Below are positions 6,646 to 40,179 of a stretch of DNA of 64,000 bases, piece by piece. How positions within the stretch are numbered: the stretch's first letter is position 1; each line of letters opens with the position of its first letter. The notes under the pieces are model-generated. The model saw only the letters and a list, made by a program, of their open reading frames with translations. It was not told the DNA's origin and did no database searches. The stretch is from assembly GCA_964602915.1 (NCBI GenBank), contig CAZRTB010000001.1, forward strand, positions 598,417-662,416, read 5' to 3'. The DNA comes from an uncultured Gammaproteobacteria bacterium (GTDB taxonomy: Bacteria > Cyanobacteriota > Vampirovibrionia > 2-02-FULL-35-15). The translations under genes were made by a program, and so were the position numbers.

Positions 6646-6770
6646 AAAAACTCATCTTTATCGGGGCTAATAGTTAATAGAAGTCGTTTTTTATAATGCA
6701 TAGTGATAAGAAGAAGGGAAGTCTTAGTATTTTTGGGGAAGACCCTTACAAATACCTATATAATATTTAT

Positions 6771-7319
6771 ATGAAAAAAAGCAAAGTCATAAATCTTTTA
6801 TTAGTGCTTGCTACAATCCTATTTGCTTTTCTTAGCCCATTGTCTGTTTTTTCTAGAATAAACAATGGTATTGAGAGAATACTGTATGAAAGTGGAGCAG
6901 TTCTTTCAGAAATAAACTATTTAAATGATAAAGAAGATGGACCTGCTAAATATTTTTATGAAAGTGGAGCGATAAAGACAGAAATTGATTTTATAAAAGG
7001 AAAAAAAGAAGGATTAGCTAAATCTTATTTTCTAAATGGAATGGTTTCTTCAGAAGTGAATTACAAAAATGGAAAAGTTGAGGGGGAAGTAAAACTCTTT
7101 TTCCCTGATGGAATGATTAAATCAGTCCAACCATATAATTCGAATACTCTAAATGGAATAGCAAAATTCTATGATGAGAATGGAAAGCTACAATTTGAAA
7201 AAAATTATAAAAAAGATAAGCTAATATCAATAAAAGAATTTTCTGAAGATGGAAAACAACTATACGAAGAAAAATATTCAAAAAACGGAAGCCTAAAAGA
7301 AAAGATATATTCAAACTAA
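6771..7319 (+). CDS. MORN-variant (YwqK-like) repeat protein, secreted
   Basis: Signal peptide MKKSKVINLLLVLATILFAFLS. It is followed by about 6 repeats of the Y..SG.....E.NY.NGK.EG pattern typical of MORN_2/YwqK repeats. The ORF track starts it at 6696; the internal Met at 6771 gives the signal peptide. Confidence 0.55.
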   Translation: MKKSKVINLLLVLATILFAFLSPLSVFSRINNGIERILYESGAVLSEINYLNDKEDGPAKYFYESGAIKTEIDFIKGKKEGLAKSYFLNGMVSSEVNYKNGKVEGEVKLFFPDGMIKSVQPYNSNTLNGIAKFYDENGKLQFEKNYKKDKLISIKEFSEDGKQLYEEKYSKNGSLKEKIYSN

Positions 7320-7358: not shown

Positions 7359-9827
7359 GTGTTGGTAGTTATAACTGGGCCTGCAAGAGTTCGTACTTTA
7401 CTAGCACAAGAAAACCTAGCAAGTATTTTGTTGCCCCAGTTCAGACGTGATAGATATAACATCGAATTAAAACAAAGAACAAATATTCAAATAGTATTAG
7501 AACCAACTTCAAATGAACTTGAACTTGAAATAACTGATGCTGAAGGAGTAGGTTTAGGAATTGATAATACTACTCTTCTAACAATGGGATTAAAAATCTT
7601 TAAACCAAAAGCACTAAGAGCGGTACAAAACAACCCTGCTTTTGAACAAAGAAATTTAACAGCTACTAATAAACCAGTAAGAATTAATCTGCAAAGCAAG
7701 AAAAATCAATTTTTAATTATTGAAGGCGATGATTTTAAAGTAGCAAACATTGGTGTAACAGGACTTTTACCAGGATCATATACTTTAAAAGCAACAATTG
7801 ATGGAAATGAAACCTCTACAACTAAAATAGTTACTAAACCCGACTTTAGAATTGATGCAGTAAATCCTCAAGTAGTAGCAGTAGGAGTTGAGACAATTAT
7901 TTCAGTTCTAGGAAAAGGATTTGATTCATTTACTAGTGTAGTTTTTGATACACCAGATGTAGAAGTTAAAGATGTTGAAAATATTGATGATGATACTCTC
8001 CTTAAAGTAAAAATCTTTCCAAAGGCAACAATCCCTCTTGGTTTAAAAGATGTAACCGCTACTGATCCATTTACAGAGAGATCTTCTACTTTAGTCCGTG
8101 GATTGTTAGTTTCAGACGGTACTTTAGGAACAGACTCTATTCCAGGAACAGATGGAATGGATGGAGCAAATGGTTTAAATGGTCTTGATGGTATGGGTGT
8201 TTGTGATAATTTAACAGATACTTTAATGCTTTTCTCGAATAGCCTTCCAGCTGGAAGCCAACCAACAATTTTCTTAGATCCAGTCCAATGTAATTTAACT
8301 TTTGGAATCCCAACAGGATTTAATGGTGTAAATGCAACAGGTGCAGATGGTATGGGACTTTGTAATAATCCTTCACTAACACCAACTACTGTAGTCAACA
8401 GCGTTGCTTATGGAACATCAGCAATGGTAACTCTCGATTCAATGGCATGTACTTTAACTTATGATATTCCTGAAGGAGCGCCTGGACATAATGCTTTAGT
8501 AGAAGATGTTAATGCTACTGTTGGACAATGTCCTTTTGGTGGAAAAGTAGTTTCATATGGAATAGATTTAAATGACAACAGCAGTTTATCTGCTATGGAA
8601 ACAACAGGAATGTTCACCATATGTAATGGAGAAAACAGCTTAGCGCTTTCAATATCAGAACCAGCAGGAGCAAATTGTGCTAATGCAGGTCAAAAAGTAG
8701 AAGTAGGTTTGGATACGAGCATGGATAATATGTTAGATGCTGGTGAAATTTTACAAACTTACTATGTATGTAATGGTACAAATGGAACTAATGGTACAAA
8801 TGGAACCAACGGTACAAACGGAGCCAATGGTACAAACGGAACCAATGGTACAAATGGTACGAACGGAACCAATGGACAAGCATGTTGGGATTTAGATAAC
8901 AATGGTATGACAGATGTAGCTTCAGAAGATATAAATGGAGATGGTTCTGTAAATGTTTCAGACTGTTTAGGAACTCTTCCAACAATTTCTTACGTAATTC
9001 AAAACTGGAATACCCTTGCAGATGAGCAGGACTACACAACAGTAGGTGGAGCAATGGCTAGAATGGTCAAGATTCCTTACTTTGTTCATGATGGAGTAGT
9101 TTATGGTGGATTCTGGGTTGATAAATATGAGGCTTCTAAATCAGATGCTACAGCATCAAGTGCTGGTGTGTCTGCAGATGTAGGAAGTAAGAGAAATGTT
9201 GTTCCGACAGCTTCTGTAACACTTGCACAAGCACAAGTAGCAGGAAGTGCAACAAATAGAAGGGTTTCTACATTAGGCCCTTGTCATTTAACAGGCATGA
9301 AAGAGTGGTATACCCTTTATCTTCTTGGAAGATATTCTAAAGTAAGTGGTACTTTCGGTGCTACTGCTACAAACGGATGGAATGAAAGAGGAAATACAAG
9401 AGCAAGTAAAGATGGAAGAAATAACGTATCATTTGCTTGTTCTGACGATCCTACAGAAAGTGGTGGCACATTAGGCAGATGCTTAACTGGTACAGGATTT
9501 AAGAGCTGGGGACATTTATTAGATGGAACAGCTACAACAAACCCTACTGGTTCAGCCATAGGTGCGGCCGCAGATTCAGCGACAAATACAACAAGTGCAT
9601 TTGATGGTGATAAGCAAGTGTATGATCTTGTTGGAAATCTTACAGATACAAATGGTGGAGCTAATGGTGGGAAACTCTTTACTGCTACAAACAGTACATT
9701 TGGAGCAATTAGAGGTGGATCATGGCTAACAACCTCAGATTCAGCATCTCCGCTTTATTTGGATCTTACTCAAACTGCTGGAAGTACAAACATTGGATTT
9801 AGAGTAACGTGTGATCAAACACCGTAA
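7359..9827 (+). CDS. large mosaic protein with a collagen-like (G-T-N)n tract and a C-terminal FGE-sulfatase (SUMF1/GldJ-like) domain
   Basis: The C-terminus has FWVDKYEAS ... YDLVGN ... IRGGSW ... IGFRVTCD, matching the FGE-domain landmarks (F.MD.YEVS / GNVWEW / GGS[WY] / GFRC). The central segment is NGTNGTNGTNGTNGTNGANGTNGTNGTNGTNGTNG plus a DGMDGANGLNGLDGMG Gly-X-Y stretch. The gene has a GTG start and no signal peptide is evident. Confidence 0.6.
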   Translation: MLVVITGPARVRTLLAQENLASILLPQFRRDRYNIELKQRTNIQIVLEPTSNELELEITDAEGVGLGIDNTTLLTMGLKIFKPKALRAVQNNPAFEQRNLTATNKPVRINLQSKKNQFLIIEGDDFKVANIGVTGLLPGSYTLKATIDGNETSTTKIVTKPDFRIDAVNPQVVAVGVETIISVLGKGFDSFTSVVFDTPDVEVKDVENIDDDTLLKVKIFPKATIPLGLKDVTATDPFTERSSTLVRGLLVSDGTLGTDSIPGTDGMDGANGLNGLDGMGVCDNLTDTLMLFSNSLPAGSQPTIFLDPVQCNLTFGIPTGFNGVNATGADGMGLCNNPSLTPTTVVNSVAYGTSAMVTLDSMACTLTYDIPEGAPGHNALVEDVNATVGQCPFGGKVVSYGIDLNDNSSLSAMETTGMFTICNGENSLALSISEPAGANCANAGQKVEVGLDTSMDNMLDAGEILQTYYVCNGTNGTNGTNGTNGTNGANGTNGTNGTNGTNGTNGQACWDLDNNGMTDVASEDINGDGSVNVSDCLGTLPTISYVIQNWNTLADEQDYTTVGGAMARMVKIPYFVHDGVVYGGFWVDKYEASKSDATASSAGVSADVGSKRNVVPTASVTLAQAQVAGSATNRRVSTLGPCHLTGMKEWYTLYLLGRYSKVSGTFGATATNGWNERGNTRASKDGRNNVSFACSDDPTESGGTLGRCLTGTGFKSWGHLLDGTATTNPTGSAIGAAADSATNTTSAFDGDKQVYDLVGNLTDTNGGANGGKLFTATNSTFGAIRGGSWLTTSDSASPLYLDLTQTAGSTNIGFRVTCDQTP
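8772..8882 (+). repeat. imperfect 9-bp coding tandem repeat (AAT GGn ACn) x12 encoding (Asn-Gly-Thr)n
   Basis: Read directly: aatggtacaaatggaactaatggtacaaatggaaccaacggtacaaacggagccaatggtacaaacggaacc... Confidence 0.8.
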
Positions 9828-9852
9828 TTAGAAATCTAAAATGCAAAAGATT

Positions 9853-9882
9853 AGAGAAGGTGTAAAAGCCTTCTCTTTTTTT
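9853..9882. terminator. bidirectional intrinsic terminator between convergent genes
   Basis: AGAGAAGG-tgtaaaag-CCTTCTCT followed by TTTTTT. The left flank is A/T-rich enough to serve the minus strand as well. Confidence 0.6.
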
Positions 9883-9898
9883 GTAGCTAACTTATTTA

Positions 9899-11872
9899 TT
9901 AATCTCTAAAAGCAGGAGATCTACAAAAAGCAGTTCCATGATCAAAATAACCCATGGCTTGGTTTGTACAACCAGGACCAGCAAACTGCCCAACAAAACC
10001 AAAGCTGGTTCCACATGCAGGAATCTGATCAGCTAATGGACAAGTAGGAGTACCTATTTTACATTTAACAACATTACTTTCACAAAAAGGAACAAGCTCA
10101 CTATTGTTATCACTGGAGCTGGACGTAGAAGAAGAACCACTAGAACTGGTAGTTGATGTAGCAGAAGATCCACCACCACAGTATCCTGCTGATGGATCGA
10201 TACTAAATGAACCTACACAAATAGCCTGACATTTCCCTAAGTAAGGTCTGCAAAAAATACTACCTTTTCCTTCTGGACAAAAAGCAGTTCCTTCTGAACA
10301 AGTAGGAACAGATGTCGTTGTACAAGTGGTAGGACAAGCAGGTTTAGTTCCATTTGGAGGGAGGATAATAGTAATGCCACTGCTTGATGAAGAAGATGTA
10401 GAGCTTGTACTAGTTGTAGAAACTCCACCGCCACAAAATGGAGCAGAAGGATCTAATGAAAATTTCGCAGAGCAAATAGCCTGACATTTACCTAAATAAA
10501 CACTGCATTTAAGAGTTCCTTTTCCAGAAGGGCAGAATGCTGTTCCATTTGTACAAGAAGGAACTTCTATACCATCACAGCTTGAACAAATAGGCTTTGA
10601 ACCATTTGAAGGAAGAATCACTGTACTTCCACTGCTTGATGAAGAGCTGGATGAGGATGAAGAAGATGGTGATGAAATTGAACCGGAAGAAGAACTGCTT
10701 GAGGAAGACATTGAAGTAGAAGTAGTTAAGGAACCAATGATATTAACATTTGAAATTGTTTTTCCTGCCTCCACTTTTAAAATAAGTGCTTTTGATTTTC
10801 CCTGAGCCAGCGGTAAATTTGGACCACGATAATAGCCTTTAGGCACAGGATTTTGAAAAGAAAGATCACTGCTATTTTCTGCATAGTGACCAACTGAAGA
10901 TCCTTTTGTAAAGTTTGAATTGATTGGCTCAATCTCTACAGTATAATCACCAGGAATAAGTCCAGCAAGTTTAAAGTTACTATTTTGAGGTCCAAGATAT
11001 CCAGAGATACATGAAATAGCTTCTAGTAGAGGATTGTTAACATTTCGTGCAATTACATTTGCACCTAAAATTTTTCCTTTTCCATTTTTTTTAAATACAG
11101 CACCTTCTATCGTTCCAAAGCCTGATAATTCAGAAGGATTTGGATAAAGCAAAGAAATACTAGACTTGTCATCTCTTTGAAGACTAAAAAGATCATTAAC
11201 AGCAATAGGAAACATTAAAGGAACAGAATCTTTAGTATTCTGAGAAGCTGATTTATCAAGAGCCTGAACATTAATTTGTGAATGATCTAACCCCAGAGCA
11301 TGACCTAGCTCATGGATTATAGTACTTTTCATTACGTTTAAACTTACTTCTTTATTTCCTGAATTTTGAATGCCATCTACAAACTTTCCGTTAAAAACAG
11401 CGCTTGATTCCTGGATAGAATAAAAATTAGAACTGCTTTCAGTAAGAAATGAAGGACCTGCAAAGCCAAGAACAAAATTGCTTGAATTAGAACCAAGAAG
11501 ATTATCGATTACTGAGCCATCACTATCAAAAACAATAGGAGTGTATCCAAGAGGATTGTCATCAGATAAATAAGGTTTAAAATTTGAACTGCTTACATCT
11601 TCAGGTAAAAATGGATCTGAATCCTGCTGAAATCTGAAAACAGTAGTGCTTACTGATTCCCAGTCATCAAATAAATCTTTAATAATAGAAATAACTGAAT
11701 CATTTGAAAGATAACCAAAAGACCCCTTGTCAAATCTATAAATAAGAGGTCTGCTTTCATAAGAAATAATAGTCCCTTTGTCTGAAACTAAAAGAGGACC
11801 ACTAGCAGTACAGGGGTAAAAACAAGAGAGGAACAATGATAAAACTAAAATTGCAGAAAGGCTAAATCTCAT
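9899..11872 (-). CDS. secreted zinc metalloprotease, matrixin-like (M10 metzincin) with poly-Ser linkers and tandem 8-Cys C-terminal modules
   Basis: Signal peptide MRFSLSAILVLSLFLSCF. HELGHALGLDHS (HExxHxxGxxH) is followed by an SVPLMFP Met-turn. There are two approximately 70-aa repeats with eight conserved Cys (..KP.C...C.....P.C..GTAFCP.GKG...C..YLGKCQAIC...FS.DPSA..CGGG) separated by Ser runs of 20-30 residues. Confidence 0.7.
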   Translation of the reverse strand: MRFSLSAILVLSLFLSCFYPCTASGPLLVSDKGTIISYESRPLIYRFDKGSFGYLSNDSVISIIKDLFDDWESVSTTVFRFQQDSDPFLPEDVSSSNFKPYLSDDNPLGYTPIVFDSDGSVIDNLLGSNSSNFVLGFAGPSFLTESSSNFYSIQESSAVFNGKFVDGIQNSGNKEVSLNVMKSTIIHELGHALGLDHSQINVQALDKSASQNTKDSVPLMFPIAVNDLFSLQRDDKSSISLLYPNPSELSGFGTIEGAVFKKNGKGKILGANVIARNVNNPLLEAISCISGYLGPQNSNFKLAGLIPGDYTVEIEPINSNFTKGSSVGHYAENSSDLSFQNPVPKGYYRGPNLPLAQGKSKALILKVEAGKTISNVNIIGSLTTSTSMSSSSSSSSGSISSPSSSSSSSSSSSSGSTVILPSNGSKPICSSCDGIEVPSCTNGTAFCPSGKGTLKCSVYLGKCQAICSAKFSLDPSAPFCGGGVSTTSTSSTSSSSSSGITIILPPNGTKPACPTTCTTTSVPTCSEGTAFCPEGKGSIFCRPYLGKCQAICVGSFSIDPSAGYCGGGSSATSTTSSSGSSSTSSSSDNNSELVPFCESNVVKCKIGTPTCPLADQIPACGTSFGFVGQFAGPGCTNQAMGYFDHGTAFCRSPAFRD

Positions 11873-12546
11873 TGTTCGCCCCCCTGACTTTTCACAAGGG
11901 TTTTTACAGTCTTAATAAATTCACGATACTCAATAGGCTTTCCAGAGTCAGAGTTTATGCTGTAAAATTTTCTTATATATTTTTGATCAATATAATTAAT
12001 TCCTTTTGTTTTAAAAGCTTTAGATAGTCCGAGGTTAAAAAGTTTGTTTGAAACAAAGTCTTTATCTGTTTTTTCATCATGAACAATAGAAAATTGCCCC
12101 TGTAAAAAACCAACAGGACTAGTTAAACCCAATTTACTATCAGGATGCAAAAACAAAACATATTTTTTATCCAAATCATACCCAGCTGAACGTGATACAG
12201 CAGACCACTGTTTAAAACTTATTTTAGATTTATTTGAAACTCCTTTGATTGGATCACTGATTAAAAATGAGTATTTTGTAACAGCTACTTTAGCTATGTT
12301 GTCATTTTTGATTTCTTTTATCTCTGTGCATGTACCGACAAAAATTCTATCTGCAGATTCAGTCAACTCTTCAATGTCTACAGGGATAGTATCAAAAACA
12401 ATATGGCCTGCTTTTCGGTGGCTTTCTTTCTCTGTAACGATATGACCAAATGCAAAACAATTAGTACTTAAAAAATAAGCAAAACCCAATATAAAAAGCT
12501 TTTTCACCATATTTTCAAAGTATCTTTTTTTCACTTGCATTGTCAA
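11869..12546 (-). CDS. secreted hypothetical protein, translationally coupled to the downstream metalloprotease
   Basis: Signal peptide (MVKKLFILGFAYFLSTNCFAFG). Its stop overlaps the protease start (ATGA, 11869-11872). Confidence 0.5.
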   Translation of the reverse strand: MTMQVKKRYFENMVKKLFILGFAYFLSTNCFAFGHIVTEKESHRKAGHIVFDTIPVDIEELTESADRIFVGTCTEIKEIKNDNIAKVAVTKYSFLISDPIKGVSNKSKISFKQWSAVSRSAGYDLDKKYVLFLHPDSKLGLTSPVGFLQGQFSIVHDEKTDKDFVSNKLFNLGLSKAFKTKGINYIDQKYIRKFYSINSDSGKPIEYREFIKTVKTLVKSQGGEQ

Positions 12547-12622: not shown

Positions 12623-13501
12623 TTAAGGACTTATATCTAAAGACTTAGAAACAATTCCTCGAGGAGTTGTTATTACCAAAACTATATTTGTTTCTTGGTT
12701 AGGATTAGAAATATTTAATAAAGCATTTATTAAACTAAAACCTTTTTGAATCTCTATCTCAGAATTTGAAAAAGAAATAGATGATGGAAATAATGTTATT
12801 TTGGTGTTTTCAGCATTAAAAGATTTTTTATTATTGTTACTGAAACCATCATTAGAATAAAAAATATTTTTAGGTGCAAAATTTCTTCCATGAATCATTA
12901 GTGATAGATTCGACTCAGATGATTCAATCCCGACCATTGAGATTATGGGTTCACCTATATCCTGGGAATTATTTCTAGAGCGCACGCTTAAAAAATCTAT
13001 AATTTCAAATTCACCTCTAAGAATACTCCCTTCTACAGTTCTGATAGACAGCTTAGATGTTCCTATAGAGATTTCATCTGGAATAGTAAGAGTTAAAAGG
13101 ATAGAATCCTGACTATTTTTTACTGTTTGCATTTTAAATGGGATAGTAGTATGGTTTGTACTGTTACTATCTTCAATATCAATTCTTTTTATTTCAATAT
13201 TATTTGGTTGTGTTTTTAGAAGAATTTCAAAGGTAGGATTTGATGCAGGGAATGCATAACCAGTTTTTTTAATAGATAAATCTGCCATTGTCGGAAGCTT
13301 TACGATATCAGGAAATATAGGGCTTCCGATAATTTCTAAGTCAAGATTACTCTCAGAGCCGACAGAAATTGAGCCGGAAGAAGAGGATACAGTACTAATA
13401 ATATCAAAGCGAGTATTTTTAAGATTTTCACTTGCAAGTGAAAAAACCTTAAAATTAAATATAATTATTAATAATATTATTAAATAAAATGCTTTTTTCA
13501 T
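12623..13501 (-). CDS. secreted hypothetical protein
   Basis: Signal peptide MKKAFYLIILLIIIFNFKVFSLASE. It is Ser/Ile/Asn-rich and has no recognisable catalytic motif. Confidence 0.45.
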   Translation of the reverse strand: MKKAFYLIILLIIIFNFKVFSLASENLKNTRFDIISTVSSSSGSISVGSESNLDLEIIGSPIFPDIVKLPTMADLSIKKTGYAFPASNPTFEILLKTQPNNIEIKRIDIEDSNSTNHTTIPFKMQTVKNSQDSILLTLTIPDEISIGTSKLSIRTVEGSILRGEFEIIDFLSVRSRNNSQDIGEPIISMVGIESSESNLSLMIHGRNFAPKNIFYSNDGFSNNNKKSFNAENTKITLFPSSISFSNSEIEIQKGFSLINALLNISNPNQETNIVLVITTPRGIVSKSLDISP

Positions 13502-14966: not shown

Positions 14967-15037
14967 ATAAGTTATAATATAGCAGGTTGGCAAGAGTGAG
15001 TTTCACTTACCTGAAACTGCTCCATAAGCATAGAGAA

Positions 15038-15111
15038 GGGCCCTTACCTCAGCTGGATAGAGGACTCGGCTACGAACCGAGGTGCCGTGGGTTCGAATCC
15101 CTCAGGGCCCG
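15038..15111 (+). tRNA. tRNA-Arg (anticodon ACG)
   Basis: Cloverleaf read by eye. The acceptor stem GGGCCCT/AGGGCCC is 7 bp. The D arm is CCTC-AGCTGGATA-GAGG. The anticodon arm is CTCGG-CTACGAA-CCGAG with the anticodon ACG. The T arm is GTGGG-TTCGAAT-CCCTC with one mismatch. No CCA is encoded. The track ORF 14987..15205 overlaps it and is therefore spurious. Confidence 0.85.
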
Positions 15112-15231
15112 TTTCCTTTCATTACATAACTCAAGACAACCCTTAACAGGGCAGGGCTTGAGTTTCTATAAATCAAATGTTCTCTCAGACGGATTTGCCA
15201 AATAAATTGGATAAATCCTATAATTATAGAT

Positions 15232-35679: not shown

Positions 35680-38600
35680 ATGGAAATTGAATCAATCTTA
35701 AAAGATATAAAAAACGAATTAAGTGAAATAAAACAACTTGATAAAAAATCCAATGCTGTAATTGAGAATAAATTAAAAAGATGGTGTGACACACTTTTAG
35801 ACCTAACAAAGAGAAATCCGTCACTTCATTTCCTTACTCATGTAAAAGCAGGAAAAAATAAAGGAAAAAGAAAACATAATATTTTTAAAATAAAACTTAC
35901 TTCAGAAGAAGTTTTTGAGAAGCTAGTAAATAAAACAGAAGTTTTAAATCTGTCTGATGCAGGATTGGTTGATTTAAGCAGAGGGTTTTCTAGATTTGGT
36001 TTTAGTAAAAAAAGAAGTTATTATATTTCTGTTTCAGAGGATATTCCAGAAGAAGGTGAAGAGGTCGAAGAATCTGAAGAATTAGAAGAAAATTTAGATG
36101 AAACACAAGATCTTGAAAATGAAACATTTCAGACTGAGCAAGAAGAAGAACTAATTGATAATAATTTAGTTATTTCCCAGTTTATAAGAATTAAAAGAGA
36201 TACAGAAAGTATTTTAGAAGAAAGAGGAACACACGTTCTTTATCTTATATGCGGGTTATTTGAGTGGAGAGATCCTCTGATATCTGATGAAATCTTAAAT
36301 ACCCCTATACTTTTTATTCCAGTTACAATTCAAAAAACCAGAACAAAAGATAGATTTAGTATTCATCTTGCAGAAAGTTCTGAAGTAGAATTTAATCCAA
36401 CATTTTCTTATTTATTAAAGAAAAACTATCAGCTGGATCTAGATAAAGAAATAAATGAAATATTAAATAATCAGGAAAATAAAGAAGATCTTTCACCAAT
36501 AAAACAAATCTTTGAATTAATAGAAACCAGATTAACAAAACTTCTTCAAGGGAAAATTAAAGATGAAACGTGGCTAGGTAAATTTTGGTTTGAAAAATTA
36601 GTTCTTTTGACTGATATTCAGAAGAATATAGGTGCTTTTGTAAATGATCCAATTATTCAAAATATTTGTGGTGAAAAACCTCAAGAAGAAATAGAACATA
36701 AAACAAATCTTGAAGAGTTATCTAGACAAGCGGAAAATAAAAAGCCTCTTGAGATATTTGAAGTACTTGATGCTGACTCTAGCCAAAGAAGGGCAATAGA
36801 ATCAGCAATTAGTAAAAAGAATTTTGTTTTAATAGGGCCACCGGGTACTGGAAAATCTCAAACAATTGCAAATATTATTTCAGAATGTCTGGTTAGAGGG
36901 AGAAAAGTTTTATTTGTTAGTGAAAAACTAGCCGCTTTGAAAGTGGTGAAAAAGAAATTAGAACAATGTAATTTAGGAAAACTATGTATATCTATTCATG
37001 GAAAAGAAACAAAGAAAAAAGATTTTTATTCGAACTTATATGACTGGTATGAAGAAGTCTTATCTTATAATCCAAAGCCAAATCAAGATGAAATAATTTA
37101 TGAAGAATTGGCAAACATAAAGAAAAGACTTAATGATTATGCTACTGCTCTTGGTAAAAATGATAGTTCGCTTAGCCATGTAGTGGAGAAGATTGGGAAA
37201 GAAGTAAAAACCTTAGAACTAACAAACCAATATATTCAAGGGAAATTATTAGGACTAGATAAAATCCCAGAAGTAAAAACAAGAATAAATATTGATGATT
37301 TAGATGTAAGAAAATACAAATCACAAAAAGAAGTTTTAGAAAAAACAATCCCCTATAAAGATATTGTCTTAAAAAAGACTTATAGCGACTGGTTCACTAC
37401 TGAACTAATGGGTCCATATACCATTGAAATGGAAGAGGATATTTTAAAAGCACTAAAAAGAATTAGTATTCAAGAATTAATAGGAATTATAGATGAAATA
37501 AACAATCTTTTAGAACTAAAAGCTTCCATGCCTTTATATAAAACCATTGATTTAATTGCATTTGTAAAAGAGATAGTTAATGCTCCTGAACTCGAATCAA
37601 ACCTTTTAAATCCAGAGGCAGTTTCAGATAGTGTAACAAAGTTAAGTTCAGACATTGCTCTTCATAAGAAATATATAGAAGAAAGAAAAAATCTTACAAA
37701 TTATTTTAATTCAAGCTTATTAGAAAAAGATCTAGATGATCTAAAAGAGAATTTCTCGGAAAAATATAAAGAAGATAAACTTAGATGGTTTAAACCAACA
37801 TATTGGAAAATAAGAAAAGAAGTTTCAAAGGATAAAGTCAAAACCCCTGATGGAAAAGAAAATATTTTTGATGACAATTTATATTTTAGTGAGATTGAAA
37901 GAGCAAGTACAATTAAAAAATTAGCTTTTGATATAGAAGCTCATACGAAAGAATTTTCACAAAGATATGGAAATACTTATGTAGGAGAAAATACAGACTG
38001 GGAAAAAGTTTCATATCTTTTAAATTATGCTGATTCGTTGTTTAAGCATCTGAATGAAAAGCTAAGCATCCCACATCTAGAAAGTATCGTCAGTTCTGCA
38101 CTGTCAGAGTGTCTCCAGTCAAAATACAGTCCTATAAAAGACAAGCTTAAACAATTACTTTTAAAACTAGAAAGCAAATTAAATGAATTTGATATTGCAT
38201 TTATAGCTCTCGGTCAATTTCTCCCATTATCATATGAAAAAGAAAAGTATGATGAGAAAAATAAATTAACTTCATATCCAAAATATATTTTTAATAAATC
38301 AGATTTTGGAATTAAAAATCTAGAAGAAGTTAAATTCTGGATTCAAAAATTAGAGAGGGATCTTAAAGAAGAGCCTTCACTTTTAGAGATATGGCTAGAG
38401 TTTAAAGAAATAAAAGAAGAAGCAAAAGAGCTAAGCCTGGAAGAATTTTTAGAAGATTTTAGTAAATTAGATCTTGATTATAATAATATTGTTCAAATCT
38501 TTGAAAAAAGAACATTAGAACTTTTACTTATAAATGCAGAAAAAGAAAGTCCTGCTCTTGCAAAATTTAGCGCAAATCGCTATCAAAAACTTCAGGAAGA

Positions 38601-40179
38601 CTTTAAAACTTTTGATAAGCAGTCGCTTAAATTAAATCAAAACAGAATATTTGAAATTGTTTCTAAGCAAATAAAAGAAAAACTAATGTTTCATCAGGAA
38701 CCAAGATTGCTTAAAAAACTTGGTCAACAAAAAAGACCTAAAAAGCCAATCAGGCAAGCTATTATAGATACAGAAGATTTATTCTTTTCATTAAAGCCGT
38801 GCTGGATGATGAGTCCACTTACGGTTAGTCAGTATTTACCGCCAAATGCATCTTTATTTGATGTAGTTATATTTGATGAGGCTTCTCAGGTAAGACCAGC
38901 AGATTCAATAGGAGCAATTTTCAGAGGAGATCAAATAATCGTAGTTGGCGATCCACGTCAGCTCCCCCCTACAAACTTTTTCCAAACAATGGCACAAGAT
39001 GACAAAAACATTTTAGATGATGAGGAAGATGAAGGATCAGAAGAAAGTATTATTGATGAGGTTTTAAGTAAAGCCTATGACATTGATGAAATCCCTTTGA
39101 AGTGGCACTATAGAAGTAAGAGCGAAGATCTTTTTTCTTTTGCTAGCCACAATATTTATTCCGACTTAGAGCTTATAACTTTCCCAAATCCAAAACCATA
39201 TTTAGAAGATGGAAGACCGCTTGGTGTAAAACATGTTTTAGTGAAAGACGGAGTTTATGACAGAGGTAAAACCAGAACAAATCTAAAAGAAGCTGAGCAG
39301 GTAGCTGATCTTGTAATAGAGCACTATACCCGTTATGGGACAGATAAATGTGATCCCAGGTATTTAAGCCTTGGAGTTATTGCCTTTAGTTCAGCACAGG
39401 AAGATGCTATTTTAAATGCTATTCAGAAAAGAAAAAAAGAATTTCCAGATATTGAGACTATTTTAGAAGATAAAGATGGAGAAGGTTTCTTTGTTAAGAA
39501 CCTCGAAACTGTACAAGGAGATGAGAGAGATCATATTATTATTTCAGTAGGATATGGCCCAGATTCTACAGGGAAAATGGTAAGCAATTTTGGACCATTA
39601 AACTCAGAGGGTGGATATAGAAGGCTAAATGTAGCTATAACAAGAGCTAGGTATCATTTGATGATAGTAAGCTCATTTAATCCACGAAGTTTTAATTTAA
39701 ACAGTAATCAGCAAGGAGCAAAACTCTTATTAAAATATTTACGATTTGCAGAACAAGGTAAAGCAGTATTGTTTGAAGATAAGCCAGAGCAAGCAAGTGC
39801 AGATACTTTTAATTCTCCATTTGAAGAAGAGGTTTTTAAGAGACTTTCAGAAAAAGGACTTGAAATCCACACTCAGGTAGGATGTAGTGGTTATAGAGTT
39901 GACATGGCAGTAATAAATCCTAAAAAACCAAATGAGTATTTATTTGCTATTGAATGTGACGGAAAAACATATCATGGGACTTTTTCGGCAAAAGACAGAG
40001 ATAGATTACGTCAGGAAATCCTAGAAGATAGAGGCTGGAAGGTCTACAGAATATGGTCTCGTGACTGGATGAAAAATCCAAAAAAAGAAATTTTAAGACT
40101 AATGGATTTTTATAATAGCCTTGTTCAAAAAGAAGAAGCAAAAGAGTTAATAGAAGATCTTGAAATGAATTTTGAGTAA
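35680..40179 (+). CDS. DUF4011-like N-region + SF1B (Upf1/DNA2-like) helicase + C-terminal DUF559/Vsr-like endonuclease fusion protein
   Basis: Helicase motifs are I LIGPPGTGKSQT, II VVIFDEASQV, III VVGDPRQLPPT, V ISVGYGPDSTG and VI RRLNVAITRARYHLMIV. The C-terminus has YRVDMAVINPKKPNEYLFAIECDGKTYHGTFSAKDRDRLRQEILEDRGWKVYRIW, the DUF559 pattern. There is an acidic low-complexity insert at residues about 125-160. Confidence 0.8.
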   Translation: MEIESILKDIKNELSEIKQLDKKSNAVIENKLKRWCDTLLDLTKRNPSLHFLTHVKAGKNKGKRKHNIFKIKLTSEEVFEKLVNKTEVLNLSDAGLVDLSRGFSRFGFSKKRSYYISVSEDIPEEGEEVEESEELEENLDETQDLENETFQTEQEEELIDNNLVISQFIRIKRDTESILEERGTHVLYLICGLFEWRDPLISDEILNTPILFIPVTIQKTRTKDRFSIHLAESSEVEFNPTFSYLLKKNYQLDLDKEINEILNNQENKEDLSPIKQIFELIETRLTKLLQGKIKDETWLGKFWFEKLVLLTDIQKNIGAFVNDPIIQNICGEKPQEEIEHKTNLEELSRQAENKKPLEIFEVLDADSSQRRAIESAISKKNFVLIGPPGTGKSQTIANIISECLVRGRKVLFVSEKLAALKVVKKKLEQCNLGKLCISIHGKETKKKDFYSNLYDWYEEVLSYNPKPNQDEIIYEELANIKKRLNDYATALGKNDSSLSHVVEKIGKEVKTLELTNQYIQGKLLGLDKIPEVKTRINIDDLDVRKYKSQKEVLEKTIPYKDIVLKKTYSDWFTTELMGPYTIEMEEDILKALKRISIQELIGIIDEINNLLELKASMPLYKTIDLIAFVKEIVNAPELESNLLNPEAVSDSVTKLSSDIALHKKYIEERKNLTNYFNSSLLEKDLDDLKENFSEKYKEDKLRWFKPTYWKIRKEVSKDKVKTPDGKENIFDDNLYFSEIERASTIKKLAFDIEAHTKEFSQRYGNTYVGENTDWEKVSYLLNYADSLFKHLNEKLSIPHLESIVSSALSECLQSKYSPIKDKLKQLLLKLESKLNEFDIAFIALGQFLPLSYEKEKYDEKNKLTSYPKYIFNKSDFGIKNLEEVKFWIQKLERDLKEEPSLLEIWLEFKEIKEEAKELSLEEFLEDFSKLDLDYNNIVQIFEKRTLELLLINAEKESPALAKFSANRYQKLQEDFKTFDKQSLKLNQNRIFEIVSKQIKEKLMFHQEPRLLKKLGQQKRPKKPIRQAIIDTEDLFFSLKPCWMMSPLTVSQYLPPNASLFDVVIFDEASQVRPADSIGAIFRGDQIIVVGDPRQLPPTNFFQTMAQDDKNILDDEEDEGSEESIIDEVLSKAYDIDEIPLKWHYRSKSEDLFSFASHNIYSDLELITFPNPKPYLEDGRPLGVKHVLVKDGVYDRGKTRTNLKEAEQVADLVIEHYTRYGTDKCDPRYLSLGVIAFSSAQEDAILNAIQKRKKEFPDIETILEDKDGEGFFVKNLETVQGDERDHIIISVGYGPDSTGKMVSNFGPLNSEGGYRRLNVAITRARYHLMIVSSFNPRSFNLNSNQQGAKLLLKYLRFAEQGKAVLFEDKPEQASADTFNSPFEEEVFKRLSEKGLEIHTQVGCSGYRVDMAVINPKKPNEYLFAIECDGKTYHGTFSAKDRDRLRQEILEDRGWKVYRIWSRDWMKNPKKEILRLMDFYNSLVQKEEAKELIEDLEMNFE

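Follow-up and report, generated by a model that had tools for sequence, protein, structure and literature searches.

Why is a small exported protein encoded directly ahead of a secreted metzincin, and what might the one do to the other? This is the question raised by a gene pair in a 64,000-nucleotide (nt) stretch of contig CAZRTB010000001.1 (assembly GCA_964602915.1, positions 598,417 to 662,416), hereafter the window, whose numbering is used throughout. The downstream gene (9899..11872, minus strand, 657 amino acids (aa) in the list of open reading frames (ORFs)) encodes a secreted multidomain metzincin; the upstream gene encodes a smaller secreted protein, here termed the partner, predicted to adopt an OB-fold of the TIMP/NTR type. 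The partner is the most conserved and the most informative part of the gene pair. We lean, with modest confidence, towards reading the pair as a protease with its cognate inhibitor (or latency factor), comparable to the potempin-KLIKK pairs. What the preliminary description reported of the sequence is borne out throughout; its interpretation is supported in part.

The partner gene and its coupling to the protease

The two genes overlap by the ATGA reported in the preliminary description, in which the protease start runs into the partner stop, and both products carry signal peptides. The partner is 223 aa in length rather than the 225 first given: its start is most likely the ATG at 12540 and not the TTG at 12546, and the gene callers on four metagenome contigs (European Nucleotide Archive, ENA) begin it at the former; the protease gene has likewise been called on four metagenome contigs. 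The same configuration recurs at other loci. At the P0012 locus the protease start again overlaps by 4 nt with a preceding 219-aa gene, the product of which is 42% identical to the window partner; the P0020 locus has the same partner-protease arrangement; and upstream of a delta-proteobacterial protease 36% identical to that of the window lies a 195-aa protein homologous to the partner (27% identity, E-value 7e-17).

A hidden Markov model of the partner, built from 36 sequences and run on all ORFs of 80 genome loci, finds it directly upstream of the protease, in the same orientation, at 69 loci; at one further locus it lies downstream. The loci bearing the partner span Melainabacteria, Acidobacteriota, Bacteroidota, Ignavibacteria, Binatia, delta- and gamma-proteobacteria and Sumerlaeota. 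Between partner stop and protease start the spacing is -4 nt at 10 or more other loci, and at most of the rest it stays below 60 nt. A cross-phylum partner profile recovers 194 proteins, those listed being about 170-260 aa in length; every named one among those listed is annotated as hypothetical, and no Pfam domain is found in any. In none of 99 protease relatives does the partner form a fused N-terminal domain. The translational coupling stands as first described; the partner itself, with its predicted TIMP/NTR-like fold and its place upstream of most of the proteases, had been treated as an aside.

The protease family itself is comparably broad. A word-indexed search returns the 99 relatives, with E-values down to 1e-197, and a scan of 185,579 species genomes (one per species) with a 12-sequence query alignment returns 189. 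The family is therefore not rare in bacteria, and the earlier statement that matrixin-like proteases are uncommon there fails for it. The nearest genome relatives, at 50-58% identity for both proteins, come from groundwater Melainabacteria and Caenarcaniphilales metagenome-assembled genomes (MAGs); the more distant ones come from delta-proteobacteria, Binatia, Bacteroidota, Ignavibacteria, Acidobacteriota, Steroidobacteraceae, Sumerlaeota and others. Our literature search found no paper describing the family.

Several individual Melainabacteria MAGs (L010-L024) carry two or three paralogous protease loci: nzgw191 with L012, L021 and L036, and SW_12 with L010 and L019. Since most of these paralogous protease loci have an upstream partner gene of their own, a matched specificity is suggested. 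At L020 and L022 a partner gene was not detected. The window contains no second copy of either the protease or the partner.

Predicted folds of the partner and the protease

The partner model has a mean predicted local distance difference test score (pLDDT) of 77.5, with the core (aa 55-165) above 90 and aa 35-51 and 174-183 low. From the N-terminus, the model shows the helix of the signal peptide, then a floppy arm, a short helix (aa 56-62), 5-6 strands forming a beta-barrel and two helices at the C-terminus. The predicted fold is an OB-barrel flanked by helices as in TIMPs and NTR modules. The solved structures that it matches are, with their listed figures: the agrin NtA domain (9.5), the entry title of which calls it 'structurally related to N-TIMP-1'; N-TIMP-3 from its complex with TACE (9.5); the C345C domain of complement C3 (9.2); the PCOLCE NTR domain (8.6); C4 (8.5); C5 (8.4); the meteorin NTR domain (8.1); and TIMP-1 (7.4), with generic OB-folds such as LEF-3, RecO, SSB and toxin B subunits at 7.3 or less. 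The ranking by Foldseek, which works independently of this comparison, starts with agrin NtA, TIMP-2, C3, TIMP-1, PCOLCE and meteorin.

Conservation within the partner family is concentrated in one loop. Residues A63, G138, P142, G144 and G148 are invariant across phyla and G100, L129, S141 and F150 nearly so; all of these, except A63, G100 and L129, cluster in the loop S135-x2-G-L-T-S-P-V-G-x2-Q-G-x-F150. The only semi-conserved cysteine is C71 in strand 1, which is missing in other phyla. No conserved lipobox cysteine was found in the partner leaders, and those of the homologs end in AxA-type sites. The mature N-terminus is Phe in the window protein and Gln elsewhere: in 41 of the 57 partners outside the window clade, a predicted AxA site (located by a regular expression and not by a dedicated signal-peptidase predictor) is followed by Gln and an arm of just 5-8 residues before the first helix, the arm mostly ending in Pro (QRTIP, QRGALTVP, QFIARP). 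This layout of arm, helix and strand is like that of TIMP-1, which starts with CTCVP and continues with a helix and strand A. In the window clade the arm is of 15-26 residues (25 in the window partner), with a conserved H-[FI]-V-F-D-T-x-P motif. The resemblances to TIMPs in the arm and the loop are parallels, not proof.

The protease appears, by its intact motifs, to be a Sec-exported and catalytically competent metzincin that is MMP-like and belongs to a hitherto unannotated family. Both the zinc motif HELGHALGLDHS and the Met-turn VPLMFP reported earlier are present. The former agrees with the metzincin consensus HExxHxxGxxH: among 68 relatives its first His, Glu and second His are invariant and the third His almost so, and among the 99 homologs it always occurs at about residue 180-230, except in three proteins that apparently lack the N-terminus. 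The methionine of the Met-turn lies 23 residues past the third His, a spacing kept in close relatives, in an inter-helix loop of the predicted structure. The catalytic region is predicted with high confidence to adopt a metzincin fold, and the solved structures nearest to the model are MMPs: MMP-2 (listed figure 10.6; 25% identity over 157 residues), MMP-20 (10.3), MMP-9 (10.2) and MMP-12 (9.8), along with EcxA (10.3), followed by ADAM17 (8.6), alkaline protease (8.5) and astacin (8.2). Given these matches of the catalytic model, we regard the metzincin assignment of the predicted domain as firm.

The narrower label, matrixin-like, holds in part. In its favor are the MMPs as nearest structures and the Pfam Peptidase_M10 profile (PF00413), which is the most consistent label across the family, with a local match in 55 of 68 members. 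In the window protease this match, of 26.8 bits against a gathering cutoff of 24, aligns residues 181-210 with profile positions 108-137 of 159: the zinc-motif region is the only stretch that matches, and the profile is not matched over its full length. The reprolysin, astacin, M43 and M66 profiles match the same stretch more weakly. NCBIfam yields motif-level matches only, e.g. to the MXAN_2677/2678 family (17.7 bits against a cutoff of 250). Similarly, a PDB sequence search with the whole protease yields only chance-level matches (an S-layer protein via a Ser tract, E-value 0.044; MMP-13, E-value 0.37).

The matrixins of M10A possess a structural zinc site of three histidines and one aspartate in the S-loop, a prodomain with the Cys switch PRCGxPD and a Met-turn (ALMYP) about 8 residues after the third His. 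The window protease has no histidine in aa 24-186, and therefore the MMP structural-zinc site cannot form. A prodomain and a Cys switch were looked for in its sequence and neither is present: the mature chain starts with SGPLLV straight after the signal peptide, this N-terminus belongs to the modelled catalytic domain, and G2, P3 and L4 of the mature chain are almost invariant throughout the family. The Ser that follows the third His and the helix-C motif RDDKSSISLLYP we take to be MMP-like. With several of the defining M10A features failing at the sequence level, the protease does not count as a matrixin in the strict sense.

The methionine of the Met-turn is normally regarded as invariant in metzincins. 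Met220 (window 11213-11215) is replaced in 15 of the 64 closest relatives, which have VPLEFP (12) or VPLLFP (3) with the zinc motif intact. The equivalent of Gly194 (window 11291-11293) is Asn, Asp or Ala in a sub-clade of distant relatives, P0067-P0084, e.g. HEFGHYVNLDHSQIN, and in P0084 the third His of the zinc motif is also replaced, by Asn.

Inhibitor, escort or substrate

On the inhibitor reading, the locus would be a secretion cassette of two, or possibly three, genes. The partner would be translated from the mRNA of the protease, exported by Sec as a mature protein of ~190 aa, and bind the protease in the periplasm at roughly 1:1, thereby holding it latent; its N-terminal arm, the invariant SPxGxxQGxF loop or both might block the active-site cleft. 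Latency would end on release of the enzyme, or on removal or cleavage of the partner, and the producer cell would be protected, as it is by potempins against KLIKK peptidases.

In favor of this proposal are the lack of a prodomain in the protease, the tight gene coupling kept across phyla, the signal peptides of both proteins and the precedents among the potempins and in Listeria. Several observations weigh against it. Eleven of the 80 loci have no upstream partner. The NTR fold is also found in agrin, the complement C345C domain and PCOLCE, which are not inhibitory. The Foldseek E-values are modest (about 2e-3) and the template-modelling (TM) scores to the targets about 0.5. Alignment by hhalign of 72 partners with the N-domains of TIMP-1 to TIMP-4 gives a probability of 6% (the TIMP-1 sequence used is 100% identical to PDB 1d2b), a value that leaves sequence-level homology of partner and TIMPs unsupported, and Pfam yields no TIMP or NTR match to the partner at E-values up to 10. 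The N-terminal cysteine and disulfides that define TIMPs are absent from the partners. The N-terminal Gln of the short-armed partners could cyclise and would then be unsuited to chelating zinc via the amino group. Moreover, with an arm of 15-26 residues, the window-clade partners would require further processing to bring a free alpha-amino group near the barrel. We regard it as doubtful that the partner family (~210 aa) is a bacterial branch of the TIMP/NTR superfamily by descent and not by convergence.

The partner might instead act in trans as a foldase, represent a prodomain that has become detached, or serve the protease as escort or adaptor in folding, export or surface attachment. The protease lacks a prodomain of its own, the coupling of the genes, by a 4-nt overlap or a short gap, looks obligate in the 69 loci, and PCOLCE and agrin NtA, both among the top fold matches, are binders or enhancers rather than inhibitors. 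Against this reading, no N-terminal fusion of the partner occurs among the 99 homologs, the zinc motif of which keeps its position, and the closest precedents in both gene arrangement and fold are inhibitors. We give this alternative a real but minor chance of being right.

A third possibility is that the partner is a substrate or pro-effector, from which the protease clips the arm and so frees a TIMP-like fragment for another target. In Listeria, Mtz trims about 50 N-terminal residues of Tim, and the phenotypes need both proteins (PMC8235301); the 25-residue arm of the window partner is of low model confidence, yet conserved in sequence. The window-clade arm may need to be clipped as in Listeria Tim, or may bind differently. 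In most other phyla, however, the arm is so short that there is nothing substantial to remove, the gene order is opposite to that of the Listeria pair, and no sequence relation to the phage-borne pairs was detected: tblastn of the catalytic domain and the partner against 50,697 phage records, which were expected to include Listeria-phage mtz-tim copies, returned no match. A pro-effector role is on balance improbable.

Very improbable is an AB toxin comparable to EcxAB, in which an oligomeric OB-fold B subunit would deliver the metzincin as A subunit: the partner resembles toxin B subunits far less than NTR domains, and the combination of a B-pentamer-like OB-fold with an A2 linker on the protease was not found. 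Hardly credible at all is an ordinary M10A matrixin acquired from eukaryotes next to an unrelated ORF, since, despite a PF00413 score above the gathering threshold and the MMP-like Ser and helix-C motif, only 30 of the 159 profile positions are covered, the structural-zinc histidines and Cys switch are missing, the Met-turn spacing differs, and the family is broad and deep in bacteria with its neighbour kept across phyla.

Accessory modules, neighbouring genes and known systems

The features of the locus are collected in Table 1.

Table 1. Features of the protease-partner locus and adjoining elements, in window coordinates
Feature	Positions	Strand	Basis or remark
Partner gene, 223-aa secreted protein	11869..12540	-	predicted TIMP/NTR-like OB-fold
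Partner signal peptide, aa 1-30, cleavage ...STNCFA/FGH	12451..12540	-	sequence; modelled as one N-terminal helix
Mature partner N-terminal arm, aa 31-55	12376..12450	-	alignment; pLDDT below 50 for aa 35-51
Partner helix and OB-fold beta-barrel core, aa 56-165	12046..12375	-	secondary structure, pLDDT, fold matches
Conserved partner loop	12091..12138	-	between last two core strands; candidate protease-contact loop
ATGA, protease start overlapping partner stop (TGA)	11869..11872	-	sequence
Protease gene	9899..11872	-	ORF list; 99 homologs, E-value down to 1e-197
Protease signal peptide, aa 1-23	11804..11872	-	sequence
Catalytic metzincin domain, aa 24-250	11123..11803	-	
Zinc motif HELGHALGLDHS, aa 187-198	11279..11314	-	sequence
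Met-turn VPLMFP, aa 217-222	11207..11224	-	sequence and family comparison
Beta-sandwich domain (CnaB / transthyretin-like / CarboxypepD_reg-like), aa 251-380	10733..11122	-	
Ser-rich linker 1, aa 381-417	10622..10732	-	sequence
8-Cys module A, aa 418-482	10427..10621	-	alignment with module B and two P0001 modules
Ser/Thr-rich linker 2, aa 483-501	10370..10426	-	sequence
8-Cys module B, aa 502-567	10172..10369	-	diverged tandem duplicate of module A
Ser/Thr-rich linker 3, aa 568-593	10094..10171	-	sequence
C-terminal 6-Cys module, aa 594-657	9902..10093	-	sequences of P0001-P0003
Terminator-like hairpin	9853..9876	both	pattern scan; between protease gene and convergent 822-aa gene
Upstream gene, 292-aa secreted protein	12623..13501	-	BLASTP; no Pfam match
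tRNA gene	15038-15111	+	only Rfam match in window

The N-terminal ~380 residues are common to the protease family and the C-terminal part is variable. Most relatives have a PPC domain in place of the Cys modules (24 of 68 in a domain tally); the same two 8-Cys modules are found in P0001, a different 10-Cys repeat in P0002 and P0003, and still another Cys-rich repeat in P0049 and P0050. Neither the beta-sandwich domain nor the C-terminal 6-Cys module had been noted in the preliminary description. The poly-Ser linkers of the preliminary description are found at three places (Table 1). Its tandem duplication of an 8-Cys module also proves real on comparison of the two copies: modules A and B are 62% identical in protein, with 8 cysteines each in the same register, all of which are invariant among A, B and both modules of P0001. 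At the DNA level the repeat has a period of 252-255 nt by pairwise repeat finding, with 75% and 77% identity in the best stretches (10218-10309 versus 10473-10564, and 10334-10393 versus 10586-10645, respectively), and 130 of 198 columns are identical over the whole modules. Tandem Repeats Finder reports nothing over 9800-12000, in keeping with a duplication of two diverged copies. The C-terminal 6-Cys module, common to the window protein, P0001, P0002 and P0003, contains the motifs GTPTCP and GTAFC, reminiscent of the 8-Cys module, and an exact 15-nt DNA repeat links 9923-9937 within it to 10277-10291.

The Cys modules were earlier said to match no fold that could be assigned, and this remains so: Pfam at E-values up to 10 gives no family for module A, module B or the 6-Cys module, including any PPC, PKD or CBM profile for a single module. 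A profile of the 8-Cys module, built from four modules and scored against all 1.84 billion cluster representatives, detects 4 proteins at an E-value of 0.001 or better, of which 3 are credible (P0001, P0137 and P0138); the fourth, P0139, is a repeat protein that aligns with just 17 positions of the profile and seems spurious. Two 8-Cys modules are likewise present in L010 of Caenarcanales SW_12, the nearest genome relative, and there are no further copies in the window. P0137 and P0138 (208 and 262 aa, secreted, from metagenomes) have a single N-terminal module, a Ser linker and an unrelated C-terminal domain, and hence the module would be mobile between proteins. We conclude that the 8-Cys module is a real, apparently disulfide-rich domain, a very narrow, lineage-specific accessory, and that its duplication is older than the split of its few carrier proteins. 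As it sits where PPC sits elsewhere, an accessory role in binding or targeting may be proposed; together, the Cys modules and linkers are most likely spacers and extracellular targeting or binding modules.

Upstream of the partner gene, 82 nt away and on the same strand, lies the gene of the 292-aa secreted protein. By BLASTP this protein aligns over 237 aa, at 30% identity and an E-value of 2e-32, with the ~240 aa that make up the C-terminal end of the P0056 fusion protease; P0066 shows a visibly similar C-terminal sequence, and the 292-aa protein ends in the shared motif VLVITTPRGI(V/I)SKS. These fusions, of the 'Rosetta-stone' type, suggest a functional link of the 292-aa gene in this lineage. 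As other loci have unrelated neighbours, it falls outside the conserved cassette.

The window is chromosomal, with leuA, pckA, lpd, glgA and a tRNA gene, and has a GC content of about 31%. A phage origin as for Listeria mtz-tim was considered and rejected, given the absence of matches in the 50,697 phage records and the presence of the housekeeping genes. The ORF at 14987-15205 overlaps the tRNA gene and was discarded as spurious. Convergent with the protease is the gene of an 822-aa protein (7359-9827, plus strand) in which two stretches match DUF7151 and an (NGT)n tract, collagen-like, matches Pfam Collagen; at 6696-7319 (plus strand) is a 207-aa exported protein of MORN_2 repeats with a weak likeness to the Leptospira LIC20035 adhesin family (52 bits against a cutoff of 250). 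Farther away, at 35680-40179 (plus strand), a 1499-aa helicase-like protein scores 987 bits against the anti-phage ProA (cutoff 1500) and 668 against Hhe (cutoff 2000); with both scores under the cutoff, it appears to be a relative and not a member of ProA/Hhe.

To our knowledge, secreted bacterial proteases with a dedicated adjoining inhibitor gene are known from a few pathogens only: the serralysin-Inh, potempin and Listeria Mtz-Tim systems. The pair reported here is conserved and unannotated in hundreds of environmental genomes of at least 8 phyla, with the same logic. Should the partner inhibit the protease, it would represent an inhibitor family that is both new and widespread, as well as a latency mechanism, open to testing, for a prodomain-less metzincin; it would also bear on whether the pairing of MMPs with TIMPs is of ancient or of convergent origin, and offer compact, disulfide-free TIMP-like scaffolds for engineering. 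If descent were to hold as well, a matched MMP-like/TIMP-like pair would be widespread in bacteria and not an animal invention. The 8-Cys modules matter less: as rare, lineage-specific accessories, they take the place of the PPC domain that relatives usually have.

Compared with the MMPs and other matrixins (M10A, PF00413, including karilysin), the window protease matches the profile only at the zinc motif, lacks the structural-zinc histidines and the PRCGxPD prodomain, and has 23 residues from the third His to the Met in place of about 8. In addition, it has an extra N-terminal beta-hairpin, and it has a CnaB-like sandwich and Cys modules, or in its relatives PPC modules, where MMPs have hemopexin. 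The serralysin inhibitors Inh/AprI (I38) present a comparable genetic logic: they are periplasmic beta-barrels whose genes share an operon with that of a secreted metzincin, the active-site cleft of which their N-terminal residues enter, and they protect the producer from serralysins. Their barrel, however, is eight-stranded and not of the OB/NTR type, and their protease is an M10B enzyme with RTX repeats that is exported by type I secretion.

With respect to TIMPs (I35) and the NTR, C345C and agrin-NtA domains, the partner lacks the N-terminal Cys, the CxC motif and the conserved disulfides. It also differs from TIMPs in its extra C-terminal helices and in its candidate functional loop, which joins the last two core strands; TIMPs make no use of this loop and bind through the N-terminus (noted in the PotA paper, PMC9890683). 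The potempins of Tannerella forsythia are OB-fold inhibitors encoded immediately upstream of peptidases, PotA being paired with the bacterial MMP karilysin (PMC9890683). The window partner gene is likewise immediately upstream of its peptidase gene and co-oriented with it. Each potempin is a small exported beta-barrel (OB-fold in PotA, PotC and PotD) that shares a transcript with one secreted peptidase and inhibits it specifically; the functional loops of potempins lie between beta4 and beta5 (PMC9890683), the place of the invariant loop in the predicted partner. Potempins are outer-membrane lipoproteins, unlike the partner with its leader devoid of a lipobox.

Finally, Listeria monocytogenes Mtz-Tim is a pair of a metzincin and a predicted TIMP-like protein (PMC8235301). 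As in the window partner, the TIMP-like part of Tim is preceded by an N-terminal extension. The differences are that mtz precedes tim, the reverse of the order in the window, and that Tim is a lipoprotein (PMC8235301); further, mtz-tim is phage-associated and under CI/Cro control, whereas the window pair is chromosomal and found in many phyla. Against this background, an inhibitor gene lying next to that of its protease is a known idea, and so is even a TIMP-like neighbour of a metzincin; what is new is that both families are unannotated, that the pair is phylogenetically broad, and that it specifically joins an MMP-like enzyme to a partner of predicted TIMP/NTR fold.

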